This document shows, piece by piece, positions 1,526-56,056 of a stretch of DNA of 57,603 nucleotides. The stretch comes from Myxococcales bacterium. GTDB taxonomy: Bacteria > Myxococcota_A > Polyangia > Polyangiales > SLQV01. Position 1 is the first letter of the stretch. The number at the start of each line of letters is the position of its first letter. Both the position numbers and the translations under genes were made by a program. The stretch covers positions 1 through 57,603 of the forward strand of contig SLQV01000077.1 in assembly GCA_007131285.1 (NCBI GenBank), read 5' to 3'. Under the pieces are notes generated by a model. The model did no database searches. It worked only from the letters and a program-made list of their open reading frames with translations, and was not told the origin of the DNA.

Positions 1526-3319
1526 ATGATAGCGTTGGCGAACAGGCGTGGGGAACGGCGATCATGCAGCCGGCATTGTGGGGACCTCGTGTGCAGTCAC
1601 TTCATATTTTCGGGCAGCGCGCGAACAAGTCCTAGAGGATTGAAGCCGAGGGCACTCGGTGACCGATACGGAAGCCAGGGAGGCGAGCGCCTCCGATCGA
1701 TAGCGGCGGCGTTCGTCGTCGCTGCGTGGGCTTTAGGCGCGACGGGCGCACTGGCTCAGAACCACTCAGACGAGCGCGCTGACATACATTCATCCGAGCG
1801 CATCGGGGTAAACGGGGAGCAGCCGCGGGGTTCACGATTCAGTGTTGGCGGAGCGCTCTTTGCGGCGCTCCCGCTTGCGCGACCGGAGCGTGACCTTTTT
1901 CGGCCGGGTCCCGGGGGCGAGCTCAGCGTGCGCTACGCTTGGACCCATTGGATCATGCCGGAAATCGTTTTGGGGACGCTGCTGCTTTCGGATGGTTCAC
2001 CACCTGCGGATATTAACCGAGAGCCCCCTGGCGTCGGCACATGGACCGCACTCAACATCGGTATGCGCGTTCTACCTTTTTCCGATCGAAGGACGCCCGC
2101 ACGCATGCGCGGGCTCTGGCTTAGCGGCGGAGGAGGTGCTGGCCTCACAGGGCGCTCGGTCCGTCCGTCCGCTACAGCAGCGGTGGGCTACGCCTTCTCC
2201 CTGAATGCCTTCGCGCTCAGCCCGGTGGTGCGGTACGCGCATATCTTTCAACAGGATAACCCCGTGAGTTCTAGCGATGCGCGATTGTTGCTCGCCGGTG
2301 TTGAGCTGGCGTGGACCGCCCAAAAACCACCCGTGAAACCTGTGGTTTCGTCGCCTCCTCCGCCTAGTGATCGCGATGGTGATGGCATCGTTGACGAGGA
2401 CGATGCGTGCCCGGATGATGCCGAAGATTACGACGGCTTCGAAGATGCAGACGGCTGTCCCGACCCGGATAACGACGGAGATGGTATTCCGGATACCGAA
2501 GATGCCTGCCCTAATGCCCCAGAAGATTTCGACGGGTTTGAGGATGAAGACGGGTGCCCCGACCCGGACAACGACGGAGATGGTATTCTTGATGTCGATG
2601 ACCAATGCCCAGACGAGCCTGAGGTCTACAATGGCATCGAAGACGAAGATGGCTGTCCCGATGCTGGCGTTATCGAACTCAAGGATGAGCGCATTATCCT
2701 CGAGGAGCGCGTGCTATTCGATTTCGAGCGCGCGCGGGTCAAGCACAGCGCTCGCCCGATTATCGAAGCTATCGTGAAGCTTTACCGTCGACAACGAAAC
2801 TGGGAAAAGCTCCGCGTCGAGGGCCACGCAGACGTGCGCGGGTCCGAGTCGTTCAACGTAACACTAAGCGAGCGACGCGCGGAGCAAGTGCGCCTGGCGC
2901 TCGTTGAGGCAGGTATTCCCGCTGAGATCATCGACTTTGTGGGCTACGGCCGAGGCCGACCCCGCGTTCTCGGCGACACCGAAGACGCGCATCAGCGCAA
3001 CCGCCGCGTCGAGTTTGTGATCCTAAGCAGAACGCCAATAGACGCGCCTGACTTCTCTCAGGACACCCGCGCACCCGACACTGACACCGACACCGACACG
3101 CCAGCGGCGGGTGCGCGCGACGAGCCGGCAGCACCGCGCCCCTCTGTCAAAACACCCCCCACGCCAGCCAGTGAACCACGCCCCCAGCCCGATCGAATAG
3201 AGCACACGCCTGACACAGATGCGCGAATTCCATCGCCCACGGCACCGCAAGAGCGGGACGGCGAAACCGCCGCTACGCCGAATGTGGAGACGCTGGACAC
3301 GAAAGGCAACGTCCCGTGA
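1526..3319 (+). CDS. OmpA-family outer membrane protein with thrombospondin type 3 repeats
   Basis: Signal-like segment, beta-strand-rich N domain, DxDGDGI..D.CP...ED.DG.ED.DGCPD repeats, OmpA_C motifs (VLFDF, VEGHAD, NVTLSERRA, GYG, NRRVEF) and a Pro/Thr tail. True start probably downstream of 1526. Confidence 0.9.
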   Translation: MIALANRRGERRSCSRHCGDLVCSHFIFSGSARTSPRGLKPRALGDRYGSQGGERLRSIAAAFVVAAWALGATGALAQNHSDERADIHSSERIGVNGEQPRGSRFSVGGALFAALPLARPERDLFRPGPGGELSVRYAWTHWIMPEIVLGTLLLSDGSPPADINREPPGVGTWTALNIGMRVLPFSDRRTPARMRGLWLSGGGGAGLTGRSVRPSATAAVGYAFSLNAFALSPVVRYAHIFQQDNPVSSSDARLLLAGVELAWTAQKPPVKPVVSSPPPPSDRDGDGIVDEDDACPDDAEDYDGFEDADGCPDPDNDGDGIPDTEDACPNAPEDFDGFEDEDGCPDPDNDGDGILDVDDQCPDEPEVYNGIEDEDGCPDAGVIELKDERIILEERVLFDFERARVKHSARPIIEAIVKLYRRQRNWEKLRVEGHADVRGSESFNVTLSERRAEQVRLALVEAGIPAEIIDFVGYGRGRPRVLGDTEDAHQRNRRVEFVILSRTPIDAPDFSQDTRAPDTDTDTDTPAAGARDEPAAPRPSVKTPPTPASEPRPQPDRIEHTPDTDARIPSPTAPQERDGETAATPNVETLDTKGNVP

Positions 3320-5136
3320 AGCGCGCGTTTCTCCAGCGTTTGCGAGCCAACTTCGGCCGGGGTCACATACTGGACCTCCGGCATAGGCATACCCTGCGCG
3401 CGCTGGAGTACGCCGGTCGACCTACCGCACTGCTCTCAAGCGCCTGGCTAACGAGATGCGGATCAGCTCTCCGCGGCGCGTGCTTTGCGTGGTTGCTGGC
3501 GGCGATCAGCCTGGGAGGCTGCGACTGCCGCACAGAGCTGGTCGGTGGAACCTGCAAGCGCGGGTTCACGCCGTGTGCGGGGCAATGCGTCAATCTACGC
3601 AGCGATAACGCGCACTGCGGGGCCTGCTTTAATGCGTGTGAAGCCGACGAAACGTGTCACCGCGCCCAATGTGGAGCCCCCGACCCAGAGCCCGGTCCGG
3701 ATCCCTGCGGTTCCAATCAGCGCCTTTGTGAAGACACGTGCCGCACCATTACCGCGGATGTGAATCATTGCGGGGCCTGTGGGCTGCGCTGTCCCGCAAG
3801 CACTTACTGCGCCGAGGGGTTCTGTATTGGCGACGGCCTCGACGCTTTCTGTGGCTTTCCTGGCCTCCTCTGCGACGGGGTCTGCATCAACCCCAATATC
3901 AATCCCGCACATTGCGGCGGTTGCGGTCTTCGCTGTCCGGAGGAGAGCGCGTGCAATGGCGGCGTCTGCCGCATAGAACCCGGCGACGCCGGCTGTACGC
4001 CCCGTGAAACGCTCTGTGAATCAACTTGCATCGATACGAGTATCGATCCCAATAATTGCGGCTCTTGTGGCAATGCATGCCCGAGCGGGCAGCCATGTAT
4101 CGAGGGCGCGTGTAGTGAGACGGGCCAGCCCTGCCAGCCACCGCTGCTCGCGTGCGGCGGACGATGCGTCGATCCAGCCACCGACAACTCCCACTGTGGC
4201 GGCTGTTTCAACGTCTGCGAAGACGCAAGTATCTGCGGTGGTGGCAGCTGCAACATCGCTTGCACAGCACCGCTCGAGCGGTGCTTGGATACCTGTGTCA
4301 ACTTGGCGTCGGACAACAACAATTGCGGGGCCTGCGGCGACGCCTGCGACCCCAGCAATACCTGCGTACAAGGCATCTGCCTGCCACCCTGCTCCTTGGG
4401 CACGTCGCGCTGTGGTGCAAGCTGCGTAGACACGCAAAGCGACCCAGACCACTGCGGCATCTGTGGTGTCGCGTGCGATACCGCTATCTGTATCGACGGC
4501 CTGTGCAGCGGCAAGCGCACCGGGCAACTCGTACTGATCGGACACGACTACCAAGTCACGCGCGTGAACATGAATCGCATCGTGGGCAACAGTATCTTTC
4601 TGGCGCCTGGCAATCCGGTGCGGGTTGTCAGCTACATCGGCGCCGCACACAACAGCGTCGTGAACGGGACACGCGTCGCCCTGAATCAGGTCGCCGCGGA
4701 ACGCGGGCGCAGCTTCGCCGAAACCGTCGCCACGGCCGACGTGTTGGAAGATAGGCTTGCCGACGCAGATGTACTGCTGATCTACGCTCAAGGCGGCGCT
4801 AGTGATACCGCTTTGGCCAACCTGGGCCTTACGCTGGGCGCGGCCATGGAGGCGTTTCTCGGCAACGGCGGTGTGATTGTGGTGCTCGACGGATACTCAA
4901 CAAGCAATGCAGGCACCTGGCAACTACTGGCGACCAGCAACTTGCTTGCCGTGACTGACGCGAACGAGATCACCGGGTCGATTGTCAGTGTCATTCATCC
5001 CGGCAGTAGCATCGCGCTCGGCTCCGCTTTAAACTACCGGGCCGAACCGACGAGCGTCAGCTTCAGCGCCAGTGACGGCCAGACCGTCGTCCAGGCAGGG
5101 GACGACCCAGTCGTGATACATAAGCTCTTTTTCTAA
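3316..5136 (+). CDS. myxobacterial cysteine-rich repeat protein (MXAN_6577/STIG1-like repeats), putative lipoprotein
   Basis: Seven copies of C-x5-(D/N)-x2-(H/N)-CG-x-C-x3-C, LGGC lipobox candidate, ~200-aa alpha/beta C-terminal domain. GTGA overlap with the upstream gene. Confidence 0.8.
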   Translation: MKRAFLQRLRANFGRGHILDLRHRHTLRALEYAGRPTALLSSAWLTRCGSALRGACFAWLLAAISLGGCDCRTELVGGTCKRGFTPCAGQCVNLRSDNAHCGACFNACEADETCHRAQCGAPDPEPGPDPCGSNQRLCEDTCRTITADVNHCGACGLRCPASTYCAEGFCIGDGLDAFCGFPGLLCDGVCINPNINPAHCGGCGLRCPEESACNGGVCRIEPGDAGCTPRETLCESTCIDTSIDPNNCGSCGNACPSGQPCIEGACSETGQPCQPPLLACGGRCVDPATDNSHCGGCFNVCEDASICGGGSCNIACTAPLERCLDTCVNLASDNNNCGACGDACDPSNTCVQGICLPPCSLGTSRCGASCVDTQSDPDHCGICGVACDTAICIDGLCSGKRTGQLVLIGHDYQVTRVNMNRIVGNSIFLAPGNPVRVVSYIGAAHNSVVNGTRVALNQVAAERGRSFAETVATADVLEDRLADADVLLIYAQGGASDTALANLGLTLGAAMEAFLGNGGVIVVLDGYSTSNAGTWQLLATSNLLAVTDANEITGSIVSVIHPGSSIALGSALNYRAEPTSVSFSASDGQTVVQAGDDPVVIHKLFF

Positions 5137-5278: not shown

Positions 5279-6451
5279 ATGGGGAATCGCAAAGCGCTGC
5301 TCTTTGTCAACGACTTAGGTTTTTTCTTCAGCCATAGGTTTCCCATCGCACTCGCCGGCCAGGCGCGAGGGTTCGATATGGCCGTGGCAGCGCCCGAAAG
5401 CAGCGCCAGCGCAGCGCACCTGGCGCAGTTGGCAGATCACAACATAAAGTGGCTGCCAGTGCCCGTACGGCGCCACGGCCTTAACCCATTGCGAGACTTA
5501 AGGACCCTAGAGACGCTTGCCCGTATTCTCCTCCGGGAACGTCCAGATATTCTGCATAACGTGACAGCAAAATGCATCTTGCACGGCTCGCTTGCGGCCC
5601 GCCTACTCTCGCTCCCCGGCCTGCCCCCGCTGCGCGTCGTCAATGCAGTGAGCGGTCTCGGCTTCGCCTTTATTCGCCAAAGCGCTGACGCGCGAGTCGC
5701 CCGTAGTGTGATTCGCGCGGGCTATCGCCTGCTGCCGCCGGCGCAGCGTACATGGTTTATCTTCCAGAATATTGACGACCAAGAGCTGTTTGAGCGAGAG
5801 GGCATGGTCAGGCCAGGCCGATCGGTAATTGTGCGAGGGTCGGGCGTAGACCTCAAATACTTCCAACCCGCCTCAAGCGCACCCGCTGCGCCCAGACGCG
5901 TCGTACTACCCGCGAGACTGCTCTGGGACAAAGGCGTGCGCGAGTTCACTGAGGCAGCGCGTTTACTGAGGTCGAGCCATCCTGAGGTGCACTTCTGCCT
6001 AGCGGGCGGCTTGGATACTACCTATCGGCAGCATGTCCCCGAAGCTCAGGTGCGCGCTTGGGAGTCCGAAGGATTGGTGCATTGGCTCGGCCATCAATCG
6101 GACATGCGCGCTTGCCTGCAAGCTGCTTCTATCGCTTGCCTACCATCCTATCGCGAAGGCTTGCCCAAAGCTTTGCTTGAGGCTGCGGCCTGTGGATTGC
6201 CCATTGTGACGACGGACGTGCCCGGCTGTCGCGAGGTGGTCACCGACGGCGTCAATGGCCTGCTGGTACCGGCGCGCGACGCTGCCGCCCTTGCTGCCGC
6301 CCTAGGGCGCCTGCTGACAGACCGCGACCTGGCCAACCGTCTCGGTGCGGCCAGCCGTCAACGCGCCACCGCCCACTTTTGCGCTCGAGCTCTCGCCAAC
6401 CAAACCATTAACCTCTGGCAGCAGGCGCTCGAAGCCGATTCAGCGCGCTAG
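5279..6451 (+). CDS. glycosyltransferase family 4 (GT-B, CapM/PglA-like)
   Basis: F.SHR.P.A, FQN.DD, GSGVD, ARLLWDKGVREF, LPSYREGLPKALLEAAACG, TDVPGCRE. Confidence 0.92.
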   Translation: MGNRKALLFVNDLGFFFSHRFPIALAGQARGFDMAVAAPESSASAAHLAQLADHNIKWLPVPVRRHGLNPLRDLRTLETLARILLRERPDILHNVTAKCILHGSLAARLLSLPGLPPLRVVNAVSGLGFAFIRQSADARVARSVIRAGYRLLPPAQRTWFIFQNIDDQELFEREGMVRPGRSVIVRGSGVDLKYFQPASSAPAAPRRVVLPARLLWDKGVREFTEAARLLRSSHPEVHFCLAGGLDTTYRQHVPEAQVRAWESEGLVHWLGHQSDMRACLQAASIACLPSYREGLPKALLEAAACGLPIVTTDVPGCREVVTDGVNGLLVPARDAAALAAALGRLLTDRDLANRLGAASRQRATAHFCARALANQTINLWQQALEADSAR

Positions 6452-8037: not shown

Positions 8038-8859
8038 TCAGACTATGGGTCTAACACCCGCCCCGGGCATTGCGGCCTGCGCCGGCGCTCGGTAAGGGTA
8101 TCGTCCTTTCTGAACACGTTCCGGCATCTCGATGATGCCCAAACGCTTGAAAAGCCGAATCATAAGGTAGCCAGGGTCTACTTCGAACCAACGCACGGCA
8201 AAGTTGGGTGCCATGCCGAAGCGATGGTGATTGTTCTGAAAAAGTTCGCCGAACGTTACAAAGTCGAAGAAGAGGGAGTTGCGCGATTGGTCGCCATTGT
8301 TGTAGTTAGCATAGCCGTAACGATGGCCGCACCAGTTCACGATAGCGCCATGAACCGGACCCATCACAAAGTGAATAGGCAACAGCAACCACAGCCACCA
8401 CTTATCCGCAAACGCGGCGTACACACCAGCATAGAGTACACACCAAAGAATACGCATCGTCCAGCTTTGTCCAAGGCGGTCGAGCATGGGCCACGAGGGA
8501 TATCCGCCGTCAAAACGCGCCTCGGGAGACCGACGATTGTAGGCGTAATCGTCGTAGCGCGCTTTTGTTGAAAGCATCATCGACATCGGATTGGAATAAC
8601 CCACGGGTGAATGCGGATCTTGCTCCGTGTCAATGAACGCGTGGTGTTCGCGATGAAGGATGGCGTACCCCCTAGGATTAAGGAACGAGGAACCCTGGGT
8701 TACGTAGGTGACTAAGTAAAAAAAACGCTCCCACCCCTTGGACATCGAAAACATGCGGTGCGCGCCGTATCGATGCAGAAAGAAAGTCTGCGAAAACACT
8801 GACCCTAGCCAGTGTGCCGCAAAGAACGTTAGAATGATGATGGTTCCCGTTGTCCACAT
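8038..8859 (-). CDS. membrane acyl-CoA (delta-9-type) desaturase
   Basis: Three His boxes (HRYGAH, HREHH..DT..DPHSP, QNNHH) plus hydrophobic segments. Confidence 0.92.
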   Translation of the reverse strand: MWTTGTIIILTFFAAHWLGSVFSQTFFLHRYGAHRMFSMSKGWERFFYLVTYVTQGSSFLNPRGYAILHREHHAFIDTEQDPHSPVGYSNPMSMMLSTKARYDDYAYNRRSPEARFDGGYPSWPMLDRLGQSWTMRILWCVLYAGVYAAFADKWWLWLLLPIHFVMGPVHGAIVNWCGHRYGYANYNNGDQSRNSLFFDFVTFGELFQNNHHRFGMAPNFAVRWFEVDPGYLMIRLFKRLGIIEMPERVQKGRYPYRAPAQAAMPGAGVRPIV

Positions 8860-14153: not shown

Positions 14154-15287
14154 TTAGAGGCGAGCGGCACGGGCGCGGAGCGCGTGGTCTGCGAGAACGA
14201 GGGCCACCATCGCTTCAGCCATCGGGACGAAACGTGGAAGCAGGCAGGGGTCGTGGCGGCCTTTGGTCTGCACCTCCGCCTCTCGGCCTGCTGAATCAAT
14301 CGTGGGTTGCGCGCGTGGCAATGAACTGGTCGGCTTCACCGCCGCCCGCAGTACGATCGGCTCGCCGCTGGAGATGCCGCCGAGCATCCCGCCGTGGCGA
14401 TTACTTGCAAAGTGGACGGCGGGCGCCCCGGCGCGCCTCGGCAAGGCATGTGCCGCAGAAACATCTGGATACATGAGGTCATTGTTTTCCGAACCGCGCA
14501 ACCGCGCGCAATCAAAGCCGATACCATACTCAACGCCCAATACTGCAGGCAGTGAAAATAGTGCTTTTGCGAGATCAGCTTTGAGTTTGTCGAAAACCGG
14601 CTCGCCAAGGCCGGCGGGAACCGCGCGCGCCGTCACTTCTGCAACGCCACCGATCGAATCCTGCGCCTTGCGCATCGCCTGAATCAGGTCGATCATTTTC
14701 GGCACAAGCGCGTGATCCGGGCAGCGCACTATATTTGGCGACCCATCAGGGAGGCTTTCGACGTCTTCTAAGCGCACCGGTCCATGGATCGCCGCGCGGA
14801 GGTCACCAATTTGAACAACGTAACCCACGACGTCCGTGCCAAATAACGCCGATAAAAGCTTTTTCGCGATGGCACCCGCAGCGACGCGCGCTGTCGTCTC
14901 GCGGGCACTGGAGCGGCCTCCGCCGCGGTGGTCGCGAAAGCCGAAGCGCGCGTCCAGCGTATAGTCCGCATGCCCCGGACGGTAGACGCTTTCGAGATTA
15001 CCGTAGTCTTTGCTCTTCGCATCGGCATTCCGAATGAGCACCGCGATAGGCGCGCCGGTCGTCTTCCCACCAAAAACCCCGGAAAGAATCTCCGGCACAT
15101 CTGACTCCTGGCGCTGAGTGACAACCTTGCTTTGCCCGGGCCTGCGGCGCTCAAGATCTACGCTTAGGTCTGCTTCGCTAAGCTCAAGCCCCGACGGACA
15201 GCCGTCGACGATCACAACGTTGCCTGGTCCGTGGCTCTCGCCAGCGGTGGTAACGCGAAATAACGTGCCGAAAGTACTACCCGCCAT
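14154..15287 (-). CDS. aroC: chorismate synthase
   Basis: GESHG, RPGHAD, RGGGRSSARET, KPTSS, GRHDPC. Confidence 0.97.
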   Translation of the reverse strand: MAGSTFGTLFRVTTAGESHGPGNVVIVDGCPSGLELSEADLSVDLERRRPGQSKVVTQRQESDVPEILSGVFGGKTTGAPIAVLIRNADAKSKDYGNLESVYRPGHADYTLDARFGFRDHRGGGRSSARETTARVAAGAIAKKLLSALFGTDVVGYVVQIGDLRAAIHGPVRLEDVESLPDGSPNIVRCPDHALVPKMIDLIQAMRKAQDSIGGVAEVTARAVPAGLGEPVFDKLKADLAKALFSLPAVLGVEYGIGFDCARLRGSENNDLMYPDVSAAHALPRRAGAPAVHFASNRHGGMLGGISSGEPIVLRAAVKPTSSLPRAQPTIDSAGREAEVQTKGRHDPCLLPRFVPMAEAMVALVLADHALRARAARL

Positions 15288-15316: not shown

Positions 15317-16051
15317 TCAGCTTCCGGCGGAGCGCCAGCGCACATAGCCGACGAAGAACGGCCCCATCTGTGCGATGAACTCGGAAGTCTGACGGGTGTG
15401 GCGCATGGTCTGCACGACATGAGACAGCGGATGCAGATCTTTGCCGATAAGCCCGATCACGAACTCGTTATCTCTCGCGTCAATTCCGTGACACGCTAGG
15501 CGAACGTCGGTCGCCAGGTTTTGTGCGCCGTAGGCTCGGCCAATAATGCCGTGTTCCATCAAGATTTTGCCCTGCTCCGCCTTATCTAGCTTTTCGAAAG
15601 CCCCGTGCCTGCGAAGCGGATACCAGACAGCCCAGGGCGCCTCCTCCTTGAGCACAGTCTCGATGGGCCGGTCGAGAATCGTCCAGGGCAAGTTCGGCTC
15701 GTGACCCGAACCGTAACTGCGGCCGATCATCGTGAAATCTGGTCGCAACCTGGCTTTCGTGCCGAGTGCCTGCCGGACGCAAGGCCGAACTTGACGAACG
15801 AAGTGGCTCGGGTCGAGCGACCAGGTCAGAACCGCAAAGCTCTCCGGATCATTGACATCGTCGTACACAACGCCCGCTAGACCGGCGTCCTCAAAGGCGG
15901 ACGCAAGGTCAGCAGCGCAACTGTGTGTGCCTGGCGCCTGCTCGCGGAATACGAGCAGCTGCATGAACAGCCGTTGGTTGATGGACTGGCGCTCGCCATC
16001 GCGGCTGGCGCCGTGCTCCAATACATCGATGGTCGGCAGCTCATGGTGCAT
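15317..16051 (-). CDS. chlorite dismutase-family heme protein (HemQ/ChdC-like)
   Basis: WYPLRR, EHG.IGR.Y, G.D..D.EF, MR.T..T. Confidence 0.75.
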   Translation of the reverse strand: MHHELPTIDVLEHGASRDGERQSINQRLFMQLLVFREQAPGTHSCAADLASAFEDAGLAGVVYDDVNDPESFAVLTWSLDPSHFVRQVRPCVRQALGTKARLRPDFTMIGRSYGSGHEPNLPWTILDRPIETVLKEEAPWAVWYPLRRHGAFEKLDKAEQGKILMEHGIIGRAYGAQNLATDVRLACHGIDARDNEFVIGLIGKDLHPLSHVVQTMRHTRQTSEFIAQMGPFFVGYVRWRSAGS

Positions 16052-16167: not shown

Positions 16168-17370
16168 CTAAGCGATGACTTTAAAGGCTTTGCCGTATTG
16201 AATCAGTAGCTTGACTGCACGATCGATATCTTCCTCGCTATGCCCCAGGGTCACATTGAGACGCAGCCGTTCTTCGCCCTGCTTAACGCCAGGGTAGGTA
16301 ATCGGCACCATCATGATGCCGTGTTCGAGCAAAGCTACGTGCAAGAAAAGCGCCTTACGCTCATCACGCACCATGATCGGCATGATGTGCGTATTGCTCT
16401 GAGCAAGGTCAAATCCCGCAGCGAGTAGTCGGCTGCGCATGTAATCCGCACGCGATTGAAGCGCATTCACCAAAGCTGGCCCCTCTGCTTCAAGCATGCC
16501 CAAGATCGTATCGGCGGCGGCAATTAGCGGGGCCGGCAAGCTAGCGCTGAAGAGAAAGGAGCGAGCGCTATGCTTGACGTGGTCAACCACCTGCTCGGAA
16601 CCGAGCAAGATACCGCCTATTCCACCGAACGTCTTTGAGAAGGTGGAGATAACGACGGGCACGCGGCCTTGCAGACCGTACTTTTCAAGAATGCCTCGCC
16701 CACCATGCCCCAGCGTGCCCGTTCCGTGAGCGTCGTCGCAAAGCACAGCTGCGCCGTATGCGTCGCAAACATCGAGTAGCTCCTCGAGGTTAGCTTCATC
16801 GCCGTCTAGCGAGTAGATGCCTTCCAGCAGAACCAAGGCATTTTTGCGCTCTTTTGTGCGCAGGCAGCGCGCGAGCGACTTGGGGCTGTTGTGGTTAAAA
16901 AAACGCAGTTCTGCTTGAGAACCCGGCGTGCCTGCGGCCATAAATGAACCGTCGAGAATGCACGCGTGACTGTAACTATCCAGTATAAGCGAGGTGTCTC
17001 GGTCGGCGAGCGCCATGATGGTTCCCACCATGGCTTGATAGCCCGTCGTAAATACGAGACAGCGCTCGAAACCAAACCACGCAGCCAAGCGCCGCTCCAG
17101 GGCAACGTGGGCATCGGTCGTGGCCTGCACCCGTGACGAACCCAGACCCGTACCATATCGGTCAATAGCCGACTTAGCCGCTTCTCGGACAGCAGGGTGA
17201 TTGGTTAGCCCGAGGTAGTCATTTGAGGAGAAATTGACGACGGGCTTGCCCGCAATCGTGGTGTGGAGCCCTCCGCTCTCAAACTCGCGAAAATAGGGGT
17301 AGACTTGGCGACTTTGAGCCTCACGGACCCGCTCGAGAGCCGATTGCGCTTTCTCCTCAATCCACAACAT
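16168..17370 (-). CDS. PLP-dependent alpha-oxoamine synthase, serine palmitoyltransferase-like
   Basis: VYPYFR, NFSSNDYLGLTNHP, DSYSHACILDG, DDAHGTG, STFSK (PLP Lys), FLFSAS, RLRL. Start at ATG 17370. Confidence 0.85.
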   Translation of the reverse strand: MLWIEEKAQSALERVREAQSRQVYPYFREFESGGLHTTIAGKPVVNFSSNDYLGLTNHPAVREAAKSAIDRYGTGLGSSRVQATTDAHVALERRLAAWFGFERCLVFTTGYQAMVGTIMALADRDTSLILDSYSHACILDGSFMAAGTPGSQAELRFFNHNSPKSLARCLRTKERKNALVLLEGIYSLDGDEANLEELLDVCDAYGAAVLCDDAHGTGTLGHGGRGILEKYGLQGRVPVVISTFSKTFGGIGGILLGSEQVVDHVKHSARSFLFSASLPAPLIAAADTILGMLEAEGPALVNALQSRADYMRSRLLAAGFDLAQSNTHIMPIMVRDERKALFLHVALLEHGIMMVPITYPGVKQGEERLRLNVTLGHSEEDIDRAVKLLIQYGKAFKVIA

Positions 17371-17514
17371 CGGCGCGCAGCCTAGCACGCAACGCGGCGC
17401 GCACGGCTTTTGAATGACGTGATGGCGAGCGCTCCGGCTGTCGACAGGTAGAAACAGGGGTGAGTGCGGCGGGGCACAGGCGCAGGAAGTGCCTACTTTG
17501 AGCTGAGCTAATCG

Positions 17515-18870
17515 CTAGGTTGCCCCCGGAGAACGCAAAAGCGTTGCCGCCGCCAAGCCCTGAATATCCATTGAGACGATCAGGATGACATCGGGCGCGT
17601 CCCGCTCAACGCTACCGCGCCCCGCCCCACCGGTTTCAGCGCCCCCCTCTCGCGGCACGCTCGCTTCAGAGAGAGGCGGCGCCTGCCAGCTGCCGCCCGC
17701 AAACAAAGAGAGCGCTACGAGCCAGTTAAATCCGGCGCTGACCGCAAAGCATTCACCCCACACGGCACCGGGGACACACACCCGGGCACCGCGACCTAGA
17801 ACCGCGCGCACCGCACGCAGCTCCGCGGCGAAGACCGCCCCTTCGGTGAGACTACCACCGAGCAGCACGACATCGACGTCATGAGGCGCGATCGCAGCCT
17901 CGGCCAACGCTGCGGCAATGGCTCGTTCCAACGCCCGTTCCGGGTACACCATACGCCGCGAATGGCCTGGGCTTTCGAAACGCAGCGCCGTAGCCAAATG
18001 AAAACCGAGCGCTGGAACCTCGGCGCCGCATACGCGTGCGCCCGCCTCAGGGCCTTCGTCTTGGCTTAGCGCTAAAAAGACCGAACCTTCGCCGTAGCGC
18101 TCGGGAAACCCCGAAAGACTCAGTGCTTTAGCGCGTGCGGCTTGTGCATCCAGCGCCTGGCACATGCCAAGCGATAGGGTCTCGGAAACGCCGACGAGCA
18201 TGCAATCCGCCTCGCCGGCGCTGAGCTTGCGCGCCGCATGCGTCAATGCACTTGCGCCCGAGCAGCGGCCATCGACGGCAGTAATGTTCGGACCGCTCAA
18301 ACCATACCAAATGGCGACTTGACCCGCGGCAGCATTGGCAACCGTATTCGGAAAGCGATTCGGATTAATGAACCGGGGCTCCTCCATTTCGGCTACCCGA
18401 TGAAGCTCTTCTATCGATTCGAGCGCGCCAAAGGCACTACCCCAGGCCACACCGAACCGGTCTGGATAACGCGCCGCCAGCTCGCCCAGCCCGGACTCCT
18501 GCAGCGCACCCTGCACAGCGACAAGCGTCAGGCGGGTCAGACGATCGAATGTGCGCAAGCCCTTGGATCCAAGGAAAGGTTCGGCGCGAAAGCCCCAAAG
18601 CAAGTGCGGCTCAATATGCTCAAATAGTGCACCCGCGAAGGCGCGGACGTCCCCCAAGGGGGGTGGCGTGGGCGTGATGGCACCCGCCCCATCAGGGACC
18701 AGACCTGGCCATACGCTCTCGCGAGCCGCCAACGCGGGCTCCCCCCCGTCAGGAGCGATCTCTACCGAGAACAGCGGCGCATATTGCCGTTGACTGTCAC
18801 TTAGCCACTGGCTCGGCCGCATACCGGCCCACCCCACCACTCCGAAGCCCAGGATACGCTGCGCGGTCAT
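17515..18870 (-). CDS. beta-ketoacyl synthase-like protein, catalytically degenerate (chain-length-factor-like)
   Basis: KS N-domain motifs (RTFDR, FPNTVANAAAGQVAI..GLSGPNIT, GEGS). Catalytic Cys position is R in DGRCSG; both His motifs are absent (LGGSLT, WGECFA). ATGA overlap with the upstream KS. Confidence 0.8.
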   Translation of the reverse strand: MTAQRILGFGVVGWAGMRPSQWLSDSQRQYAPLFSVEIAPDGGEPALAARESVWPGLVPDGAGAITPTPPPLGDVRAFAGALFEHIEPHLLWGFRAEPFLGSKGLRTFDRLTRLTLVAVQGALQESGLGELAARYPDRFGVAWGSAFGALESIEELHRVAEMEEPRFINPNRFPNTVANAAAGQVAIWYGLSGPNITAVDGRCSGASALTHAARKLSAGEADCMLVGVSETLSLGMCQALDAQAARAKALSLSGFPERYGEGSVFLALSQDEGPEAGARVCGAEVPALGFHLATALRFESPGHSRRMVYPERALERAIAAALAEAAIAPHDVDVVLLGGSLTEGAVFAAELRAVRAVLGRGARVCVPGAVWGECFAVSAGFNWLVALSLFAGGSWQAPPLSEASVPREGGAETGGAGRGSVERDAPDVILIVSMDIQGLAAATLLRSPGAT

Positions 18871-20201
18871 GGCCTCAGCCCCCCTGAGACGCCCTCGGGC
18901 GCATCGTCCTCGCGAGCACCTTCAGGAACCGCGATGCCAGCCGACGCACTATACCTTCCAGAGGCAGGCGCATCCGGCTGAAGCACGACATCTTCGGCAT
19001 TTATCAGAGGCAAGACCGCATTGTAGCCGCCAAATGCGAGCGAGTTGTTCAGCACGACCCGCAGCCGTGTTGAGTGTGCAGTGCGCTTCAATACGTCGAT
19101 CTCCAAAGCGGGATCCGTTTCTTCGAGGTTCACAGTGCCGGGAACAACACCGGTGCGCAACGCCTGCACGCATGCCACCGCCTCGATCGCGCTGGCAGCG
19201 CCCATGGCGTGTCCAATAGCGCCCTTAAGTGAGGAGACCAGGGGCACATGCGTTCCGAAAACAGCGCGCAAGACCTGCGCCTCGACTGCATCGTTGGCCT
19301 CGGTACCGGTGCCGTGTGCGCAAAAATAATCGACGGCGTCCGGCGCGAGGCCGGTTGCACTCAGAGCACGTAGAAGCGCCGCCCGGCTACCGGCGCCTTC
19401 GGGATGGGGACGCGTAATGTGAAACGCGTCGCATGTGAGCCCAAGCACGCCAAGCTGAGCCAAGGGTTGCCCACCACGACGTACCACGCTCGCGGCGGAT
19501 TCGAGCACAAAGAACGCGGCCCCCTCGCCAATCATTAAGCCTTTGCGCTGGGCATCGAAGGGCTGGCAGCGCTGCGGGGCGATCGCACCTAAACGAGCAA
19601 AGCCTGCATACTGGAGGCGCTCTATGACCTCGCTTGCCCCCGCAATGACAAGGTCAGCGTGCCCCGTGCGTATCAACTCCGCTCCCAGCCCGAGCGCATA
19701 GTTCCCCGCAGCGCAAGCGCCCGGAACGGTATGAATGGGTCCCTCGCACCCCGCGGACCGAGCGACGAGGGCGGGGAGCGTGACCGACCCAAACGGGACG
19801 ACCGCCCCGGGCGCCACGCCGGCTGCGTTCCCGTGGAACCAAGCCCGATGCACTGCACCTAAGCGGTCGCCCTCGCCCATCGACGTGCCCACGACGACCG
19901 CACGACGTTCCGGCGCCGGCGTCTGCGCGTTGGGGTGCCCGGCTTGTTCAAGCGCCTGGCGCGTCGCCGCAAGCGCATAACCCGCGGCCCTTCCGACCTG
20001 CCGTTGCTCACTTCGTGTGAGCCAAGGCTCCCAGGGCACCCCCTTGACCTCGCAGGCCTGATCCCGCTCAATGCCATCGGTCGAAAATCGGGTGACCTGG
20101 CCCTGACCACTTTCGCCTCGGCACAAAGCCTGCCACCAGCTCTCGACATCGCTTCCGAGTGCGCTGACAATCCCCATCCCGGTCACGTAGACCGCTTCCA
20201 T
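18867..20201 (-). CDS. beta-ketoacyl-ACP synthase II (FabF-like)
   Basis: Intact triad motifs GACAAG, AHGTGT..ND..E, KGAIGHAMGA; also DAFHIT and NSLAFGGYN. Confidence 0.92.
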   Translation of the reverse strand: MEAVYVTGMGIVSALGSDVESWWQALCRGESGQGQVTRFSTDGIERDQACEVKGVPWEPWLTRSEQRQVGRAAGYALAATRQALEQAGHPNAQTPAPERRAVVVGTSMGEGDRLGAVHRAWFHGNAAGVAPGAVVPFGSVTLPALVARSAGCEGPIHTVPGACAAGNYALGLGAELIRTGHADLVIAGASEVIERLQYAGFARLGAIAPQRCQPFDAQRKGLMIGEGAAFFVLESAASVVRRGGQPLAQLGVLGLTCDAFHITRPHPEGAGSRAALLRALSATGLAPDAVDYFCAHGTGTEANDAVEAQVLRAVFGTHVPLVSSLKGAIGHAMGAASAIEAVACVQALRTGVVPGTVNLEETDPALEIDVLKRTAHSTRLRVVLNNSLAFGGYNAVLPLINAEDVVLQPDAPASGRYSASAGIAVPEGAREDDAPEGVSGGLRP

Positions 20202-20299
20202 CGCACGCCGCTCCTAGTCCGAGCGACCCCAAAAGGCAAGAGCGTGGTCGCGGCTCGCGCCTTGACACTTCACCCTACGGAAACGTAAAGAGCGGCCTC

Positions 20300-22108
20300 A
20301 TGGCGGAAAATCTCGCGACAACGCTGGTGACCGCCCTCCTCGACTTACCCGAGCGGGAGGGGCGAGGCTTTACGTGCGTGAGGCGAGATGGCAGCGAGAA
20401 GTCTCTTTCCTGGCGTGAACTGAAGGCCGCCGCGCGCGCCACCGGAAAAATACTCAAGACGTCACTTGGCGTGGTGCCAGGTGACCGAGTGGTGGTGGTT
20501 CTACCCGAGCCTGATGACTTCGTAGTCGCGTTTTTTGGCTGCGTCCTCGCGGGCGCGGTCCCCGTGCCGCTCGCCAACAAAGCGCCTTTTCGCGCAGCGG
20601 CGGCCTACCGCGATCATCTCGCACATATCTTGCGAGCATCCGGGGCTAAGCTGATCCTTACGGACCGTCAGTGCGCCGAGGCCGCGGAGCTATCGCTTCT
20701 TGACGCGGAACTCGGGCGCGACACGTCTGAGCCGACTTCCCGGTCACCCATGAGCACCGCAGCAACGGCACGCGTGACCGTTGCTGATGTAGACACGCTC
20801 GGCGCACAGTTGGGCCAGATATCCGCTGCGGGCGACTTCGACCAGCCTGCGCTGCCTAGCCCAGACGACCTGTGCTTCCTTCAGTTTACGTCCGGCAGCA
20901 CGTCTGAGCCGAAGGGCGTGAGGGTGTTGCATCGCAATCTCGTCGCGAACGCGCGGGCTTTTTTGGGCCCCGCTGGCCTCGACCGCACCGATGCAGACCT
21001 GGGCTTGAGCTGGCTGCCGCTCTACCACGACATGGGACTGATTGGCTTTGTCCTGGGCCCTGTCATCTGTGATATCTCGGTTGTCTTGATTGCGACCGAA
21101 CGTTTTGCAAAGCTCCCGCGATCCTGGCTGGAGGAGATCAGTGCTCGCGGCGCTACGATCACATTTGCGCCCAACTTTGCGTACCGACTGGTCACGCGGC
21201 GCGTGCGCGAACGAGATCTAGAGCGACTTAACCTCCGCAGCTTGCGCATCGCAGGCTGCGGTGCCGAACCGATTCAGGCTGAAACGCTTGTAAGTTTCGC
21301 TGAACGCTTTGCTCCGTGTGGCTTCAACCCGATAGCATTCGCCCCCTGCTACGGCATGGCCGAAAGCACTCTGGCAATATCGTTCACTCGGCCAAACGAT
21401 CCATTGGCGTTCGAATGGGTTGACACCAAGCAGCTGGCCCAAGGTCAAGCCGTTGTGTCGCAGTCTGCGCAAAGACCCGAAGCAACAACTCCAGGCACCC
21501 ATGTGCAGCCAGTCCAGTCGCAGATCGTCGATTGCGGTCAGCCGTTCCCGGGGCATGAGGTGCATGTCGTGCGAGAGGACGGTGCAGTGGCCGATGAGCG
21601 AGAGGTTGGCGAAGTCTGGGTGCGCGGCCCAAGCGTAGCGGACGGCTACGAGGGGCTCAGTAGCCCGGACACATTCGATCCAGACGGCTGGCTACACACC
21701 GGTGACCTTGGCTATTTCGCTGAGAATCATCTTTTTATCTGTGGACGCCTGAAGGACATGATTATCGTCAATGGATCCAATCATTTCCCTCAAGATATCG
21801 AATGGTTGGTGGCGGGCGTAGAGGGCGTACGGGAAGGCGGCGTCGTGGCCTTCGGGTTGCCGGGAACCCAGGGCGATGAAATCGTTGTGGTTGCCGAAAC
21901 ACGCGCCAGCGACGCCGGGCGCGTGCGCGACGAAGCCGCACGACGTGTGGCTGCGGAGATGGGCGTTCAGCCCTCCGTGGTAGCGGCCGTGCCTCCCGGC
22001 ACAATACCCAAGACATCTAGCGGAAAAATACAACGCAGGCGGACCCGCCAGCTCTATCAAAACGGTGCGCTCTCCGAGCATGGTACCGCGACCGAAACGC
22101 CGAGCTAG
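20300..22108 (+). CDS. fatty acyl-AMP ligase (FAAL)
   Basis: FLQFTSGSTSEPKGV, SWLPLYHDMGLIG, APNFAY, CYGMAESTL, TGDLG, GRLKDMII, PKTSSGK. Confidence 0.92.
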   Translation: MAENLATTLVTALLDLPEREGRGFTCVRRDGSEKSLSWRELKAAARATGKILKTSLGVVPGDRVVVVLPEPDDFVVAFFGCVLAGAVPVPLANKAPFRAAAAYRDHLAHILRASGAKLILTDRQCAEAAELSLLDAELGRDTSEPTSRSPMSTAATARVTVADVDTLGAQLGQISAAGDFDQPALPSPDDLCFLQFTSGSTSEPKGVRVLHRNLVANARAFLGPAGLDRTDADLGLSWLPLYHDMGLIGFVLGPVICDISVVLIATERFAKLPRSWLEEISARGATITFAPNFAYRLVTRRVRERDLERLNLRSLRIAGCGAEPIQAETLVSFAERFAPCGFNPIAFAPCYGMAESTLAISFTRPNDPLAFEWVDTKQLAQGQAVVSQSAQRPEATTPGTHVQPVQSQIVDCGQPFPGHEVHVVREDGAVADEREVGEVWVRGPSVADGYEGLSSPDTFDPDGWLHTGDLGYFAENHLFICGRLKDMIIVNGSNHFPQDIEWLVAGVEGVREGGVVAFGLPGTQGDEIVVVAETRASDAGRVRDEAARRVAAEMGVQPSVVAAVPPGTIPKTSSGKIQRRRTRQLYQNGALSEHGTATETPS

Positions 22109-22599
22109 CCGGCCGCGCACCCTCCCTGCGCGCTCACTTTTAGGAGTTATACGCACCGGCCTTCCTCAGATAGCTGAGGGTGAATCCGAATCATACTTCG
22201 GCGCCAAAGCCGCCCGATGCCAGCGTGAGAAGCGCTCACGGGTCTCGGCCTAAAGCGAGTCTACCTGCCTCTTGGGGCTCCCCGACCCGTGTATCAAAAC
22301 CCGTCTGACCAGAGGCGCGTTTGACCTGGGTCTGGGCTTAGCGTCAGGCTGGGCTATAGTCGGCGCGCTCGCAGAGGTAAGCCCGGACCATAGACGAAAC
22401 CTCCGCGCTAGGAGGCCTTCCCTTAGGGAACGCGCGAAAGCGCGGTCTGTGGCTTCGACGGGAACGACGTGCCTGGTTTTTACACCAGCCACAGGATACC
22501 CCCTTATCGAGCAACCTAGTAAACGGCCTCGACGAACGACCGCCGTACCCCGACAGAACGCAAACGCCCGAGCGCTGATCCGGGCGCCGCAGGAGGCCG

Positions 22600-22854
22600 A
22601 TGGACACCGACGAACTTTTGATACTCTTCCGAGAACTCGCCAGCGAGATCGCCGAAAAGGACTGCTCGAGCATTCCGGCCGACGCGCAGGTAACGCAGCT
22701 GGGGATCGACTCCCTCGGTTTGATGGAACTTGTGGGTACGCTTGAGCGTGAGCTTGCGATCCGGCTTCCGGAGGCGGAGCTTGCGGAAGTTCGCACCGTC
22801 AACGACCTTTTGCGCGTCGCGGCACAGCAACTTAAGGAGCGCCGCACGGGCTAA
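22600..22854 (+). CDS. acyl carrier protein
   Basis: Acidic 84 aa, LGIDSL phosphopantetheine site, AGGAGG RBS. Confidence 0.9.
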   Translation: MDTDELLILFRELASEIAEKDCSSIPADAQVTQLGIDSLGLMELVGTLERELAIRLPEAELAEVRTVNDLLRVAAQQLKERRTG

Positions 22855-23209
22855 ACGCCAGAGGCTTCGAGCGCTACCCGAAAAACCGTTAAGCATTTGA
22901 CATAAAACGTCTTTCCTGCGATTTACAGGCAAGCTGACTCCGAGCGGAGGCCGACGTAAATGGGCGCGAGACTGGCGCCCTCGAGTCTATACCCGTACCC
23001 TTAGAGCCGGCGAGACCGAAGCCGACAGGCCGATGACGGGTCGACTTGCAACGGTGTGGCCGCCAGCGGCGTAGAACCTGCAAGGGAGTCCTTGAGGCCC
23101 GGTGGCGAAGGAGCAGGTCGTCACCGAGCGAACGTAGCCGCAGGCTCTTGCCAGCGGGGTGACTTTTAGATTGAAGGCCGTGGTCAAGCCGAAGTGACGA
23201 GGATACAGA

Positions 23210-23446
23210 ATGGATATCAACGAGCTTCGCGAAGAAATCCGTCAGATTATCGCTGAGGTAAGCGAGGTGGACATCATTCCCGACGCCACCTCGTTCGGCG
23301 AGCTTGGAATCGACAGCATGATGGCGATTGAGATCGTTGCCGAGGTGGAGCGCAAGTACAAGCTTTCTATCCCCGAAGACGAGCTTCAAGAGCTCACGGA
23401 TCTGGACCGCGTCGTCGAAAAGGTAACCTCGCGCATCGCAGCCTAG
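23210..23446 (+). CDS. acyl carrier protein
   Basis: Acidic 78 aa, LGIDSM site, GAGGA RBS. Confidence 0.92.
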   Translation: MDINELREEIRQIIAEVSEVDIIPDATSFGELGIDSMMAIEIVAEVERKYKLSIPEDELQELTDLDRVVEKVTSRIAA

Positions 23447-54552: not shown

Positions 54553-55722
54553 TTAATAGCGGATTGTAGCGGCCAGGCCTGTCTTTGTGGGCATGGCCTC
54601 GGGAGGAACAACGAGAACGCGACCTCCCTTCGCGGAAACGATCTCGCCGAGGTCATCAAGCAGATCATCCACATCCGGGGCGTCTAGTTGGGCCAACGCT
54701 ATCGCTCCGGTAGCGAGGTCTAGCCGACCGGGATAGGCACGTCCGGATTCGAGCAGCAACGTATCGATACGCCCTTCAACTCCAGCACGCGCAGCCTCTG
54801 CGAGGTCTGAGATGCCTCGACCCTGCGACTGCGCATGGCCGAAACGCTCCGCATGCTCTGCTAGACTTGCCGCGTAGGCGGGTGCGAACGTCTCCCAGGC
54901 GCGCACTTCCAGATCTTTGTGCGAAAGCGCCTCGGGGTCGATACTAAGGCCAGGAGCGACCAGAAGACTATTCTGGCTCAGGCCACGAAAGTGACCCTGA
55001 TACTCACCGAGACAGCAGAGCAGTAGAGGAAGCCCCGACGGCTTGCTAACGTGCTCAATGACGGCGCGGTCGACAGCGCGGAAAAACCGCTCGCGGTCGT
55101 TGTCTACTTCGTCCGCCTTGCCACCATGGCCATGGCGCATGGACGAACCCAGGCCCACGCCACCGTGGGAGGTCACGGTTTGGTGCTTCTCCGTCAGCTC
55201 ATGACCGAGAGCTGCCGGGAGGTCTGTCGGGACGCTGCCTTCGAGGTCGAGCTCGTCGAGGTGGTGACGGTTGCCTTCGAAGACGCGCACCTTTCCCAAG
55301 GACAACGCCAAGACCTGATAGCGCCCCGTCGACTGAAAATAGCGCCGAAGCGGCTTGACGTGAAACGTATCGGCGACCACCGACAGGTCGGGCAGGCCGG
55401 TTGGCAGACGGAGCGCTTTGAACACGCCGGGCGCGCTAAATACAGCGAGACCATCAAGAGTGTGGTTCCAAAAGTCAGCGTCATCCGCTAGTTTCTGCAT
55501 GGGCGCCAGCAACGTCTGGGCGTTTTCCGCCGAGACGCTTTGCGCCAGCGACGCCTGCAACGAGCCTAGCAGGTTACGAAAACGAATGGGATCCTGCTGG
55601 TTATCTGGGTGATGACGATGAGTCGCCTGGTAAAGAGACACGCAAGGGCCCGTTTGACCCGTGAGTTCCCCACGGATGATATCTTCTGTGACCAGCCTAA
55701 AGCTTCGAACCTGTTCGACCAT
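54553..55722 (-). CDS. bacterial archaeo-eukaryotic release factor family protein (baeRF3-like)
   Basis: PCVSLY..THR..PDN.QD.IRF.NL, FW.....GLAVF, FHVKPL, HGHG, RFFR.VD, GRI.TL, DDLLDDL.E.V...GG.V, AA..RY. ATG 55722 chosen as start. Confidence 0.85.
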   Translation of the reverse strand: MVEQVRSFRLVTEDIIRGELTGQTGPCVSLYQATHRHHPDNQQDPIRFRNLLGSLQASLAQSVSAENAQTLLAPMQKLADDADFWNHTLDGLAVFSAPGVFKALRLPTGLPDLSVVADTFHVKPLRRYFQSTGRYQVLALSLGKVRVFEGNRHHLDELDLEGSVPTDLPAALGHELTEKHQTVTSHGGVGLGSSMRHGHGGKADEVDNDRERFFRAVDRAVIEHVSKPSGLPLLLCCLGEYQGHFRGLSQNSLLVAPGLSIDPEALSHKDLEVRAWETFAPAYAASLAEHAERFGHAQSQGRGISDLAEAARAGVEGRIDTLLLESGRAYPGRLDLATGAIALAQLDAPDVDDLLDDLGEIVSAKGGRVLVVPPEAMPTKTGLAATIRY

Positions 55723-56056
55723 ACCTTCGGTGTGAGCGCTAAGCCGCCGTTCCGCAAGTCCTGACTCGTCTGGACTTGCGACTGCATGGACTTGCTTTGC
55801 GCATTTTCGAGCCTTGCGAGCGTATGACCCGCCAAGTCTCGCCGGTCGTCTTTGTGCAAGCGACCGGATGCAAGCGACCGGGGCCGACCTCAAGCCAAAG
55901 CCCGAGTCTCTACAGCTCATGGTCGCCCGCTGGCCGTACCGAGCATGCTGTGGACCTGCTCACTTACGTGAAGTGATGCCGTTCCGGCAAGTACGCAACC
56001 CAGTGCAATTAGCTAGTCAAAACAAACTGCTCTGGCTTAGTTTCGTAGCTTGGTGG

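Follow-up and report, generated by a model that had tools for sequence, protein, structure and literature searches.

A six-gene cluster conserved in Polyangiales as a candidate pathway for a sphingoid-type long-chain amino lipid

Results

Genes of the cluster

The stretch of DNA analyzed here, referred to as the window, comprises positions 1 to 57,603 of contig SLQV01000077.1 of a Myxococcales bacterium (order Polyangiales; GCA_007131285.1), an assembly of 3.1 Mb in 216 contigs that is 91% complete. Its subject is a six-gene cluster encoding an alpha-oxoamine synthase (AOS), an elongating ketosynthase (KS; KSa), a KS partner with a degenerate active site (KSb) that resembles a chain-length factor (CLF), a fatty acyl-AMP ligase (FAAL)-like enzyme and two acyl carrier proteins (ACP1 and ACP2) (Table 1). 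The genes lie in two divergent arms, as seen in the open reading frame (ORF) list and the Pfam matches: KSa, KSb and AOS in one, FAAL, ACP1 and ACP2 in the other. An earlier reading of the window made from the letters alone (the original prediction) had proposed these six genes, the KS/dead-KS pair and the FAAL-ACP-ACP arm, all of which were confirmed by the ORFs, Pfam, NCBIfam and a KS alignment.

Table 1. Features of the six-gene cluster in the window.
Feature	Length	Position	Strand	Description
AOS, Spt-like	406 aa	16168..17388	(-)	Pfam Aminotran_1_2, E 2.8e-49; NCBIfam
KSb, CLF-like dead KS partner	451 aa	17515..18870	(-)	only N-terminal ketoacyl-synt domain, E 2.7e-19
KSa, elongating ketosynthase	444 aa	18867..20201	(-)	both KS domains; Cys163-His296-His331
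Divergent intergenic region between KSa and FAAL starts	98 bp	20202..20299		presumed shared promoter region, judged from coordinates and sequence
FAAL-like adenylating enzyme	602 aa	20300..22108	(+)	AMP-binding and DIP2-like C-terminal domain
ACP1, DSL motif	84 aa	22600..22854	(+)	PP-binding, E 3.4e-13; carrier accompanying FAAL and the KS pair
ACP2, DSM motif	78 aa	23210..23446	(+)	PP-binding, E 5.2e-14; better-conserved carrier accompanying AOS

The KS pair, the ligase and the carriers

We aligned the window pair jointly with 14 orthologous KSa/KSb pairs. The Cys-His-His triad of KSa was intact in 15/15 sequences. In the KSb rows, the column of the catalytic Cys held Asn in 13 sequences, Arg in the window copy and Pro in one, the first His was replaced by Ser, Ala or Gly, and the second by Glu in all 15. 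By this alignment KSb has lost all three catalytic residues, and the loss is conserved among orthologues. Classical CLFs carry Gln where KSb carries Asn or Arg. A neighboring Cys of KSb sits one column past the catalytic position, which we take to be the register of the Gln of classical CLFs. The stop codon of KSa overlaps the start codon of KSb in ATGA, indicating translational coupling, so that an active KS stands beside a coupled, triad-less paralogue as in the KS/CLF pairs of type II polyketide synthases (PKS).

The best structural matches of KSa in the PDB were 9s5h_B (316.6 bits) and 6kxd_A (258.7 bits), with FabF scoring lower. KSb matched FabF best and also the partner chains 6kxd_B and 9s5h_C, and its look-alikes in a protein atlas were annotated as 'beta-ketoacyl synthase N-terminal-like' proteins, many of them with PF13723. 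On curated NCBIfam models KSa reached 229 bits for the cispentacin protein AmcF (cut-off 325) and 69.8 bits for PigJ (cut-off 900). These matches group KSa and KSb with KS/CLF heterodimers from type II PKS of the highly reducing kind, and the two proteins probably form a heterodimer.

The best match of the ligase among 105 NCBIfam families was the fatty acyl-AMP ligase model PRK09192 (483.8 bits, under the cut-off of 600), and its best PDB match was 3pbk, a 'Fatty Acyl-Adenylate Ligase' (327 bits). In the window, and in relatives with an adjacent ligase, the ligase gene is followed by an ACP gene; wherever FAAL adjoins the cluster, this gene is ACP1. ACP1 is the less conserved carrier, at 38-52% identity. 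ACP2 shares 45-68% identity over 15 orthologues, in all of which the motif LGIDSM is kept, and of the two carriers it more closely resembles the ACP of the 9s5i KS complex (9s5i_E). A 4HBT-type thioesterase gene (L029 14814-15356, L027 3786-4217, L081 2415-2834) follows ACP2 in one family (f8) and a detached FAAL gene in genome G018, and its product may serve in editing or release as an accessory enzyme in certain lineages.

Identity of the alpha-oxoamine synthase

The window genome carries only two AOS-family genes. The second gave 329.9 bits on the bioF model, adjoins an ORF containing bioD and groups with E. coli BioF; BioF is therefore already accounted for, and the cluster AOS is not the BioF of this genome. 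A glutamyl-tRNA reductase, the HemA of the C5 pathway, is also present (431.5 bits, cut-off 209.55), so that a 5-aminolevulinate synthase (ALAS) is not needed. Identification of the cluster AOS as ALAS or BioF was rejected on these grounds. Its scores on the Kbl model PRK06939 and the ALAS model TIGR01821 were 293.2 bits (cut-off 460) and 232.1 bits (cut-off 338.55).

The best PDB match of the cluster AOS was the serine palmitoyltransferase (Spt) of Sphingobacterium multivorum (SmSPT; 3a2b, 250.5 bits), followed by Kbl (219 bits), BioF (198 bits) and CqsA (110 bits). We mapped its residues through the 3a2b alignment onto those SmSPT residues that PMC10196870 names in its account of the enzyme. 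The pyridoxal-phosphate (PLP)-binding K252, together with H141, D219, H221, S193, T249 and N56, was kept in 16-17 of 17 AOS proteins of the cluster clade, and the AOS fold thus carries the PLP-lysine and the His/Asp/His catalytic set of an Spt. Two further positions separate the families. A Ser at the FSK motif and Ala282 are common to the cluster AOS and the Spt-like clade of Myxococcota (17/17 each); the FSK-motif position is Gly in 12/12 Kbl and BioF rows (8/8 for BioF), and the position of Ala282 is Asn in Kbl and Thr in BioF. The cluster-clade residues S85, S251 and A282 correspond to V, G and N in the Kbl rows.

In a maximum-likelihood tree of 47 sequences, which included 17 cluster AOS and no experimentally characterized Spt, the cluster AOS formed one clade (support 100) that joined the Myxococcota Spt-like clade with 95 in the Shimodaira-Hasegawa-like approximate likelihood ratio test. 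Members of the Spt-like clade score 405-584 bits on the Spt model NF047600. The joint clade stood apart from the Kbl and BioF clades, and the cluster AOS lay outside both the Kbl clade (E. coli Kbl with three paralogues of the order, support 100) and the BioF clade. Taken together, these comparisons suggest that an Spt-like enzyme is the best-scoring identification of the cluster AOS.

Distribution and synteny

The counts given here and below come from samples of partly incomplete metagenome-assembled genomes (MAGs) whose relatives are not independent, and the tallies for the order include one genome flagged as unpublished (G280), counted once as positive for both AOS and KSb. Orthologues were called at E <= 1e-90 (AOS, phylum sample), E <= 1e-120 (AOS, order sample) and E <= 1e-22 (KSb, above a FabF background of about 1e-17). 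Among 201 genomes sampled across the phylum, 30 had an AOS match, all in the order of the window: the window genome and 29 of 34 other sampled members. The AOS orthologue occurred in 0/166 genomes of other Myxococcota outside Polyangiales. Within the order it was found in 124 of 151 genomes at 63-74% identity, and in 34/40 of the nearest relatives. KSb was present in 105/151 genomes and accompanied the AOS in 102 of the 124. AOS proteins 65-72% identical to that of the window are also encoded on public contigs of Polyangiaceae, Polyangiales and Myxococcales MAGs, and the source names of further orthologues are Sandaracinus and Sandaracinaceae.

For synteny, we compared 16 fetched loci of 15-19 kb from 14 other families of the order. 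KSa and KSb lay next to the AOS in 14/16, and FAAL, ACP1 and ACP2 were adjacent in 10, 12 and 13, respectively; eight loci held the full six-gene set, as did four further MAG contigs (L038, L041, L042 and L047). The arrangement is far from chance. Synteny, which the original prediction had proposed to check across Myxococcota, accordingly stands within Polyangiales and not elsewhere in the phylum. The flanks of the cluster vary from family to family, and no regulator, receptor or exporter is conserved beside it in the loci of relatives. A single-contig genome of the order with only 1.8 Mb retains AOS, KSb and FAAL within 6 kb. Rather than being a sporadic natural-product locus, the cluster sits among housekeeping genes (dcw, aro, hflX); its retention in the 1.8-Mb genome, its core-gene neighborhood and the absence of a composition shift make it look essential.

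Complementarity with the canonical Spt-like gene

We scored AOS-family proteins of at least 400 bits on NF047600 as canonical Spt-like, the next-best score being 344.5. Such a gene was found in 21/151 genomes of the order, 20 of which lacked the cluster AOS, and KSb occurred in none of these 20 (five of five also checked singly). In one family (f11), the cluster AOS was found in 0/9 genomes and the Spt-like gene in 7/9; in another (f18), 13 genomes had the cluster AOS and 13 the Spt-like gene, with zero overlap. Seven genomes had neither type, all of them 86-89% complete and three still with KSb. The two distributions are almost perfectly complementary, which matches the prediction made from functional equivalence. 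According to PMC9386255, the Spt proteins of delta-proteobacteria, Sorangium included, group with those of Bacteroidetes, and the grouping reported there fits the Spt-like clade.

The Spt-like gene adjoins MlaA in 4/11 short loci from other Myxococcota. In Polyangiales, Spt-like genes lie in open frames of 520-590 codons, in which about 150 codons precede the AOS domain (e.g., L073 1195-2877); in these upstream codons we found no ACP and no other Pfam domain, and the stretch is either a genuine N-terminal extension or an artefact of GC-rich open frames. Two families have a gene of about 383 aa after the Spt-like gene; these genes are not related to one another.

We also searched for LpxC (PF03331), using control genomes that behaved as expected. 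It was found in 12 of the 61 genomes of the order with a completeness of at least 90%, and no match was obtained in 48 of the 54 cluster-bearing genomes of that completeness, the window genome included; it was present in 6/7 genomes of the Spt-like family f11 and in 4/6 of f18. These data suggest that most of the order lacks lipid A. Sorangium cellulosum So ce56 is reportedly lipopolysaccharide-lacking, as the title of Keck et al. 2011 calls it.

A genus without the KS pair

One genus of the order (g9) separates the AOS from most of the cluster. All 20 of its sampled genomes encode the AOS, and none of the 20 has a KSb orthologue. KSa was not found in 4/4 genomes searched, where the best match was 32-35% identical, the level of FabF, and no separate ACP1 was found in four genomes searched, the sole ACP1-like match beside the AOS being ACP2. 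The adjacency of AOS and ACP2 is kept in two of three short loci fetched from the genus and in a longer locus (L030) of its genome G009. Another genus in this family retains KSa and KSb beside the AOS. Since this genus keeps AOS and ACP2 without KSa, KSb and ACP1, we read AOS plus ACP2 as the core, equivalent to an Spt with a dedicated ACP, and FAAL, ACP1 and KSa/KSb as a removable feeder or elongation module. The KS pair is thus not obligatory, and looks like an addition to the pathway instead of its center.

The pocket residues of the AOS in this genus, including the substrate loop, are the same as in other cluster AOS. Because the pocket is unchanged in lineages that have no KS pair, we infer that the AOS would act on an ordinary reduced acyl-ACP2 and not on 3-oxoacyl-ACP2.

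A gene for a PHM/DBH-type copper monooxygenase (Cu2_monoox_C) adjoins the AOS in this genus (L030 8095-9144 in G009). Another locus of G009 (L079 32-7213) carries a FAAL-like gene 40% identical to that of the window, with two genes of the fatty-acid-desaturase family, an alpha/beta hydrolase and GT4/GT2 glycosyltransferases, and could be a lipid-tailoring locus. A desaturase (8038-8859) and a GT4 gene (5279-6451), which lie 8-11 kb upstream in the window, were considered as counterparts of these genes and rejected at 25-34% identity.

Surroundings of the cluster

Pfam identifies the flanking genes as a chlorite-dismutase-like gene, aroC (chorismate synthase), a rhomboid gene, a gene of 251 aa that has no family assignment, and hflX; the remainder of the window is occupied by the dcw cell-wall cluster, by pheA and by genes of a similar kind. 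The GC content of the locus is 0.60-0.65 and does not depart from that of the flanks. Promoter and terminator scans gave matches within chance, including the sole promoter-like match near the 98-bp gap, and an Rfam search of the whole window gave zero matches. The gaps on either side of ACP1 measure 491 bp (22109-22599) and 355 bp (22855-23209), have no Rfam match and contain only short ORFs without an obvious family; in relatives, the gap from FAAL to ACP1 is about 80-280 bp, and that from ACP1 to ACP2 is mostly below 100 bp within a range of 0 to about 900 bp. The chlorite-dismutase/HemQ-like gene (15317-16051; 32.6 bits on HemQ, a weak match given a cut-off of 235) and aroC (14154-15287) lie directly downstream of the AOS; G009 has both genes as well (56% and 68% identical), at a distance of about 5 kb from its AOS.

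Elsewhere in the window, a 455-aa protein at the end of the dcw cluster (54553-55920) belongs to baeRF family 3, a bacterial archaeo-eukaryotic release-factor-like domain (E 1.4e-40), and a 606-aa protein (3316-5136) with many Stig1-like cysteine-rich repeats (PF04885, E 2.4e-40) adjoins an OmpA-domain protein. A search of sequencing runs returned no RNA runs and three DNA runs, all from one study of soda-lake and alkali-sediment metagenomes.

Discussion

The data presented above suggest that the cluster may encode a core pathway, specific to the order, that makes a sphingoid-type long-chain amino lipid for the cell envelope; in it, a type-II-PKS-like feeder would supply an ACP-dependent, Spt-equivalent synthase. 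We give this proposal about an even chance of being correct. The domain identities, the catalytic residues and the patterns of co-inheritance were observed directly, and on them we build the following sequence, in which the conjectural parts are how the transfers are ordered, that KSa and KSb form a heterodimer, which amino acid and which type of chain are used, and the envelope role. A free fatty acid would be adenylated by FAAL and loaded on ACP1. The acyl group would then be taken up by Cys163 of KSa in the KSa/KSb heterodimer and condensed with malonyl-ACP2, leaving a chain two carbons longer on ACP2. The 3-oxo group would be reduced, most likely by housekeeping FabG/FabZ/FabI, and the AOS would join the acyl group of acyl-ACP2 to an amino acid, L-serine being the likeliest, in a PLP-dependent decarboxylative Claisen condensation that gives a 3-keto long-chain base. 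Enzymes encoded elsewhere would complete the lipid. An envelope-lipid role is the most economical one to propose, because LpxC is missing from most cluster-bearing genomes, the cluster is retained in the 1.8-Mb genome and its neighborhood is one of housekeeping genes.

Several observations weigh against this proposal. The AOS misses all curated NCBIfam cut-offs, among them those of the Spt models NF047600 (SptCFB, 320.1 of 640 bits), NF047599 (SptBeta, 287.9 of 500) and NF047603 (SptAlpha, 216.6 of 670), and its nominal top score, about equal to that for SptCFB, is on the bioF model TIGR00858 (327.4 bits, cut-off 426.45). The stem of the cluster-AOS clade is long (1.98 changes per column), and approximately unbiased (AU) tests rejected neither a grouping with Kbl (p 0.379) nor one with BioF (p 0.339). 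In the maximum-likelihood tree the AOS is not nested within Kbl or BioF and joins the Spt-like proteins, but in view of these tests and of the missed Spt cut-offs its deep placement with Spt is not secure. The substrate loop of the AOS is one residue shorter than in all reference groups (SSR-VQATT in the window and SSR-(V/A)QATT in the clade, vs. GSR(F/L)LNGT in the Spt-like clade). The corresponding Gly80-Asn85 loop lines the amino-acid and acyl pockets of SmSPT in the description given by PMC10196870, and because of the deletion a different amino acid or acyl substrate is possible. Pfam analysis of the locus genes found no ketoreductase (KR), dehydratase (DH) or further lipid enzyme; the predicted lack of KR, DH, CerR and bCerS in the locus is thus upheld. 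The gene of about 383 aa that follows the Spt-like gene (L072) and the HpnA-like reductase encoded beside ACP2 in G009 have no match in the window genome. One genome (G239, 89% complete, 6% contamination) carries both AOS types, and a genome of the same genus as the window (G001, 82% complete) has no AOS orthologue. Finally, the complementarity with the Spt-like gene is seen in one whole family and in part of a second, and because relatives are not independent it may have come from only two or three replacement events.

A wider version of the proposal, which we put forward tentatively and consider doubtful, is that most Polyangiales, in the majority of which LpxC was not found, have replaced the canonical Spt with a six-gene hybrid whose product, a new long-chain base, is the main outer-membrane lipid in place of lipopolysaccharide. 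In this hybrid, a feeder of FAAL, ACP and KS/CLF in the style of type II PKS would be coupled to a divergent, ACP-dependent AOS with an altered substrate loop; as part of the same tentative reading, the base would be chain-extended, or C5-oxygenated, or derived from some amino acid that is not serine.

The alternative that survives best, which we nevertheless hold to be unlikely, follows the same line up to the 3-oxo group, which would stay unreduced: the AOS would condense the amino acid directly with 3-oxoacyl-ACP2, as in the logic of 4-methoxy-2,2'-bipyrrole-5-carbaldehyde (MBC) synthesis for prodigiosin. The product would be a 2-amino-3,5-dioxo lipid, and from it an alkyl hydroxypyrrole or pyrrolinone by cyclization, or a 1,3,5-triol base by reduction. 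The parts list agrees one for one with PigI, PigG, PigJ and PigH, the cluster has no KR, DH or enoylreductase, KSa matches PigJ weakly, the clade-specific loop deletion could suit a different acyl group, and ACP2, the carrier closest to those of KS complexes, is also the one tied to the AOS. However, the genus without the KS pair keeps AOS and ACP2 with an unchanged pocket and has no such pair to supply 3-oxoacyl-ACP2, the PigJ score lies far under its cut-off, and housekeeping-like conservation across the order together with the Spt-like complementarity is more in keeping with a bulk membrane lipid than with a reactive diketone.

The original prediction had also offered a secreted amino-ketone. 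We consider it improbable that a diffusible signal of the CqsA/LqsA kind (an amino-ketone or alpha-hydroxyketone), or another specialized metabolite, is the product of the cluster. In favor of this alternative, a KS/CLF pair is a typical component of type II PKS, one family has a 4HBT thioesterase after ACP2, and AOS enzymes of this kind do exist: CqsA is among the PDB matches of the cluster AOS, and for Bacteroides fragilis the enzyme Lgs is presented as one such AOS in 10.1101/2025.08.20.671311. The cluster AOS is far closer to SPT than to CqsA, however, and occurs in most genomes of the order at 63-74% identity, the 1.8-Mb genome included, in a core-gene neighborhood and with no conserved regulator, receptor or exporter alongside. 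This conservation and the complementarity with Spt-like genes favor a core envelope lipid over a secreted natural product.

It is highly improbable that the AOS is a cofactor or amino-acid enzyme fed by KS, FAAL and ACP (BioF with a dedicated pimeloyl-ACP route, Kbl or ALAS): the nominal bioF score, the AU tests, the HemQ-like gene beside it (about 5 kb away in G009) and a BioB gene about 5 kb from the AOS in G009 speak for this, but a second AOS with an equal bioF score lies beside bioD, relatives have BioF-like paralogues of their own, the FSK-motif Ser differs from the Gly of Kbl and BioF, the C5-route HemA is present and the ALAS score falls short of its cut-off, and pimelate or succinate is unlikely to be supplied by a long-chain FAAL.

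If the proposal of an ACP-dependent synthase for an envelope amino lipid is true, the cluster would be the first case found in primary lipid metabolism of an AOS fed by a KS/CLF pair via free-standing ACPs. The synthesis of sphingolipids in bacteria was elucidated only recently, mainly in Caulobacter and Bacteroides, and how Gram-negative bacteria without lipopolysaccharide build their outer leaflet is still open; the locus provides a defined, order-wide candidate pathway. It has properties useful for further work, in that it excludes the canonical Spt-like gene, survives strong genome reduction and has a natural KS-less variant. Our full-text searches, which covered main texts, found no paper on an architecture of AOS, KS/CLF, FAAL and ACP, in line with the original prediction, which did not recognize it as a characterized pathway, and none citing 9S5H, and those on myxobacterial Spt led to no papers beyond the ones cited here; as to architecture alone, the Pig proteins discussed below provide a precedent.

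Comparison with known systems

Among known systems, the KS/CLF pairs of highly reducing type II PKS (6kxd chains A and B; 9s5h chains B and C with the ACP 9s5i_E) resemble the cluster in that KSa is like their catalytic chains, KSb like the partner chains and ACP2 like the complexed ACP. We take 6kxd to be the ishigamide system and the KS/CLF class to be that of aryl-polyene-type clusters. In aryl-polyene clusters an adenylating loader and two ACPs occur, as they do here. The cluster differs from highly reducing type II PKS in having no conserved KR, DH or thioesterase, release would be via the AOS, and one genus dispenses with the pair.

The prodigiosin MBC module passes its substrate from an adenylating enzyme (PigI) to a carrier (PigG), a KS with an inactive KS partner (PigJ), and an ACP with a serine-condensing AOS (PigH). 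The present cluster consists of discrete proteins rather than fusions, would use a fatty acyl instead of a pyrrolyl starter, and behaves as part of the core genome and not as a pigment cluster.

As described in PMC9386255, Caulobacter combines Spt with a dedicated ACP (AcpR) and an acyl-ACP synthetase (AasR). The cluster is alike in having an AOS-family enzyme, a small dedicated ACP and a fatty-acid-loading adenylate-forming enzyme in an envelope-lipid context, and the AOS-ACP2 core that persists alone in one genus comes near to this system. In contrast to it, the cluster AOS reaches less than a third of the cut-off on the alpha-proteobacterial Spt model, the loader is of the FAAL type, a second ACP and the KS/dead-KS pair are added, and no CerR or bCerS lies nearby.

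The Spt of Bacteroidota and delta-proteobacteria (SmSPT, 3a2b/8guh; NF047600) is the best PDB match of the AOS and its near-best match among the profile models. With reference to the SmSPT residues named in PMC10196870, the AOS keeps the equivalents of Asn52, His138, Ser185, Asp210, His213, Thr241, Ser243 and Lys244, shares those of Ser243 and Ala274, and is distributed in a manner complementary to this type within the order. It differs from the SmSPT type in scoring half the model cut-off, in forming a separate clade on a long stem, and in its loop, where the residue lost is the equivalent of Phe83; moreover, the stand-alone Spt of the SmSPT type is described as using acyl-CoA, unlike the ACP use proposed here. 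The cluster thus resembles both the Caulobacter trio and the Pig logic, yet is a member of neither, as the cut-offs of the Spt models are missed, the loader is a FAAL, and two ACPs with a KS/CLF pair are added.

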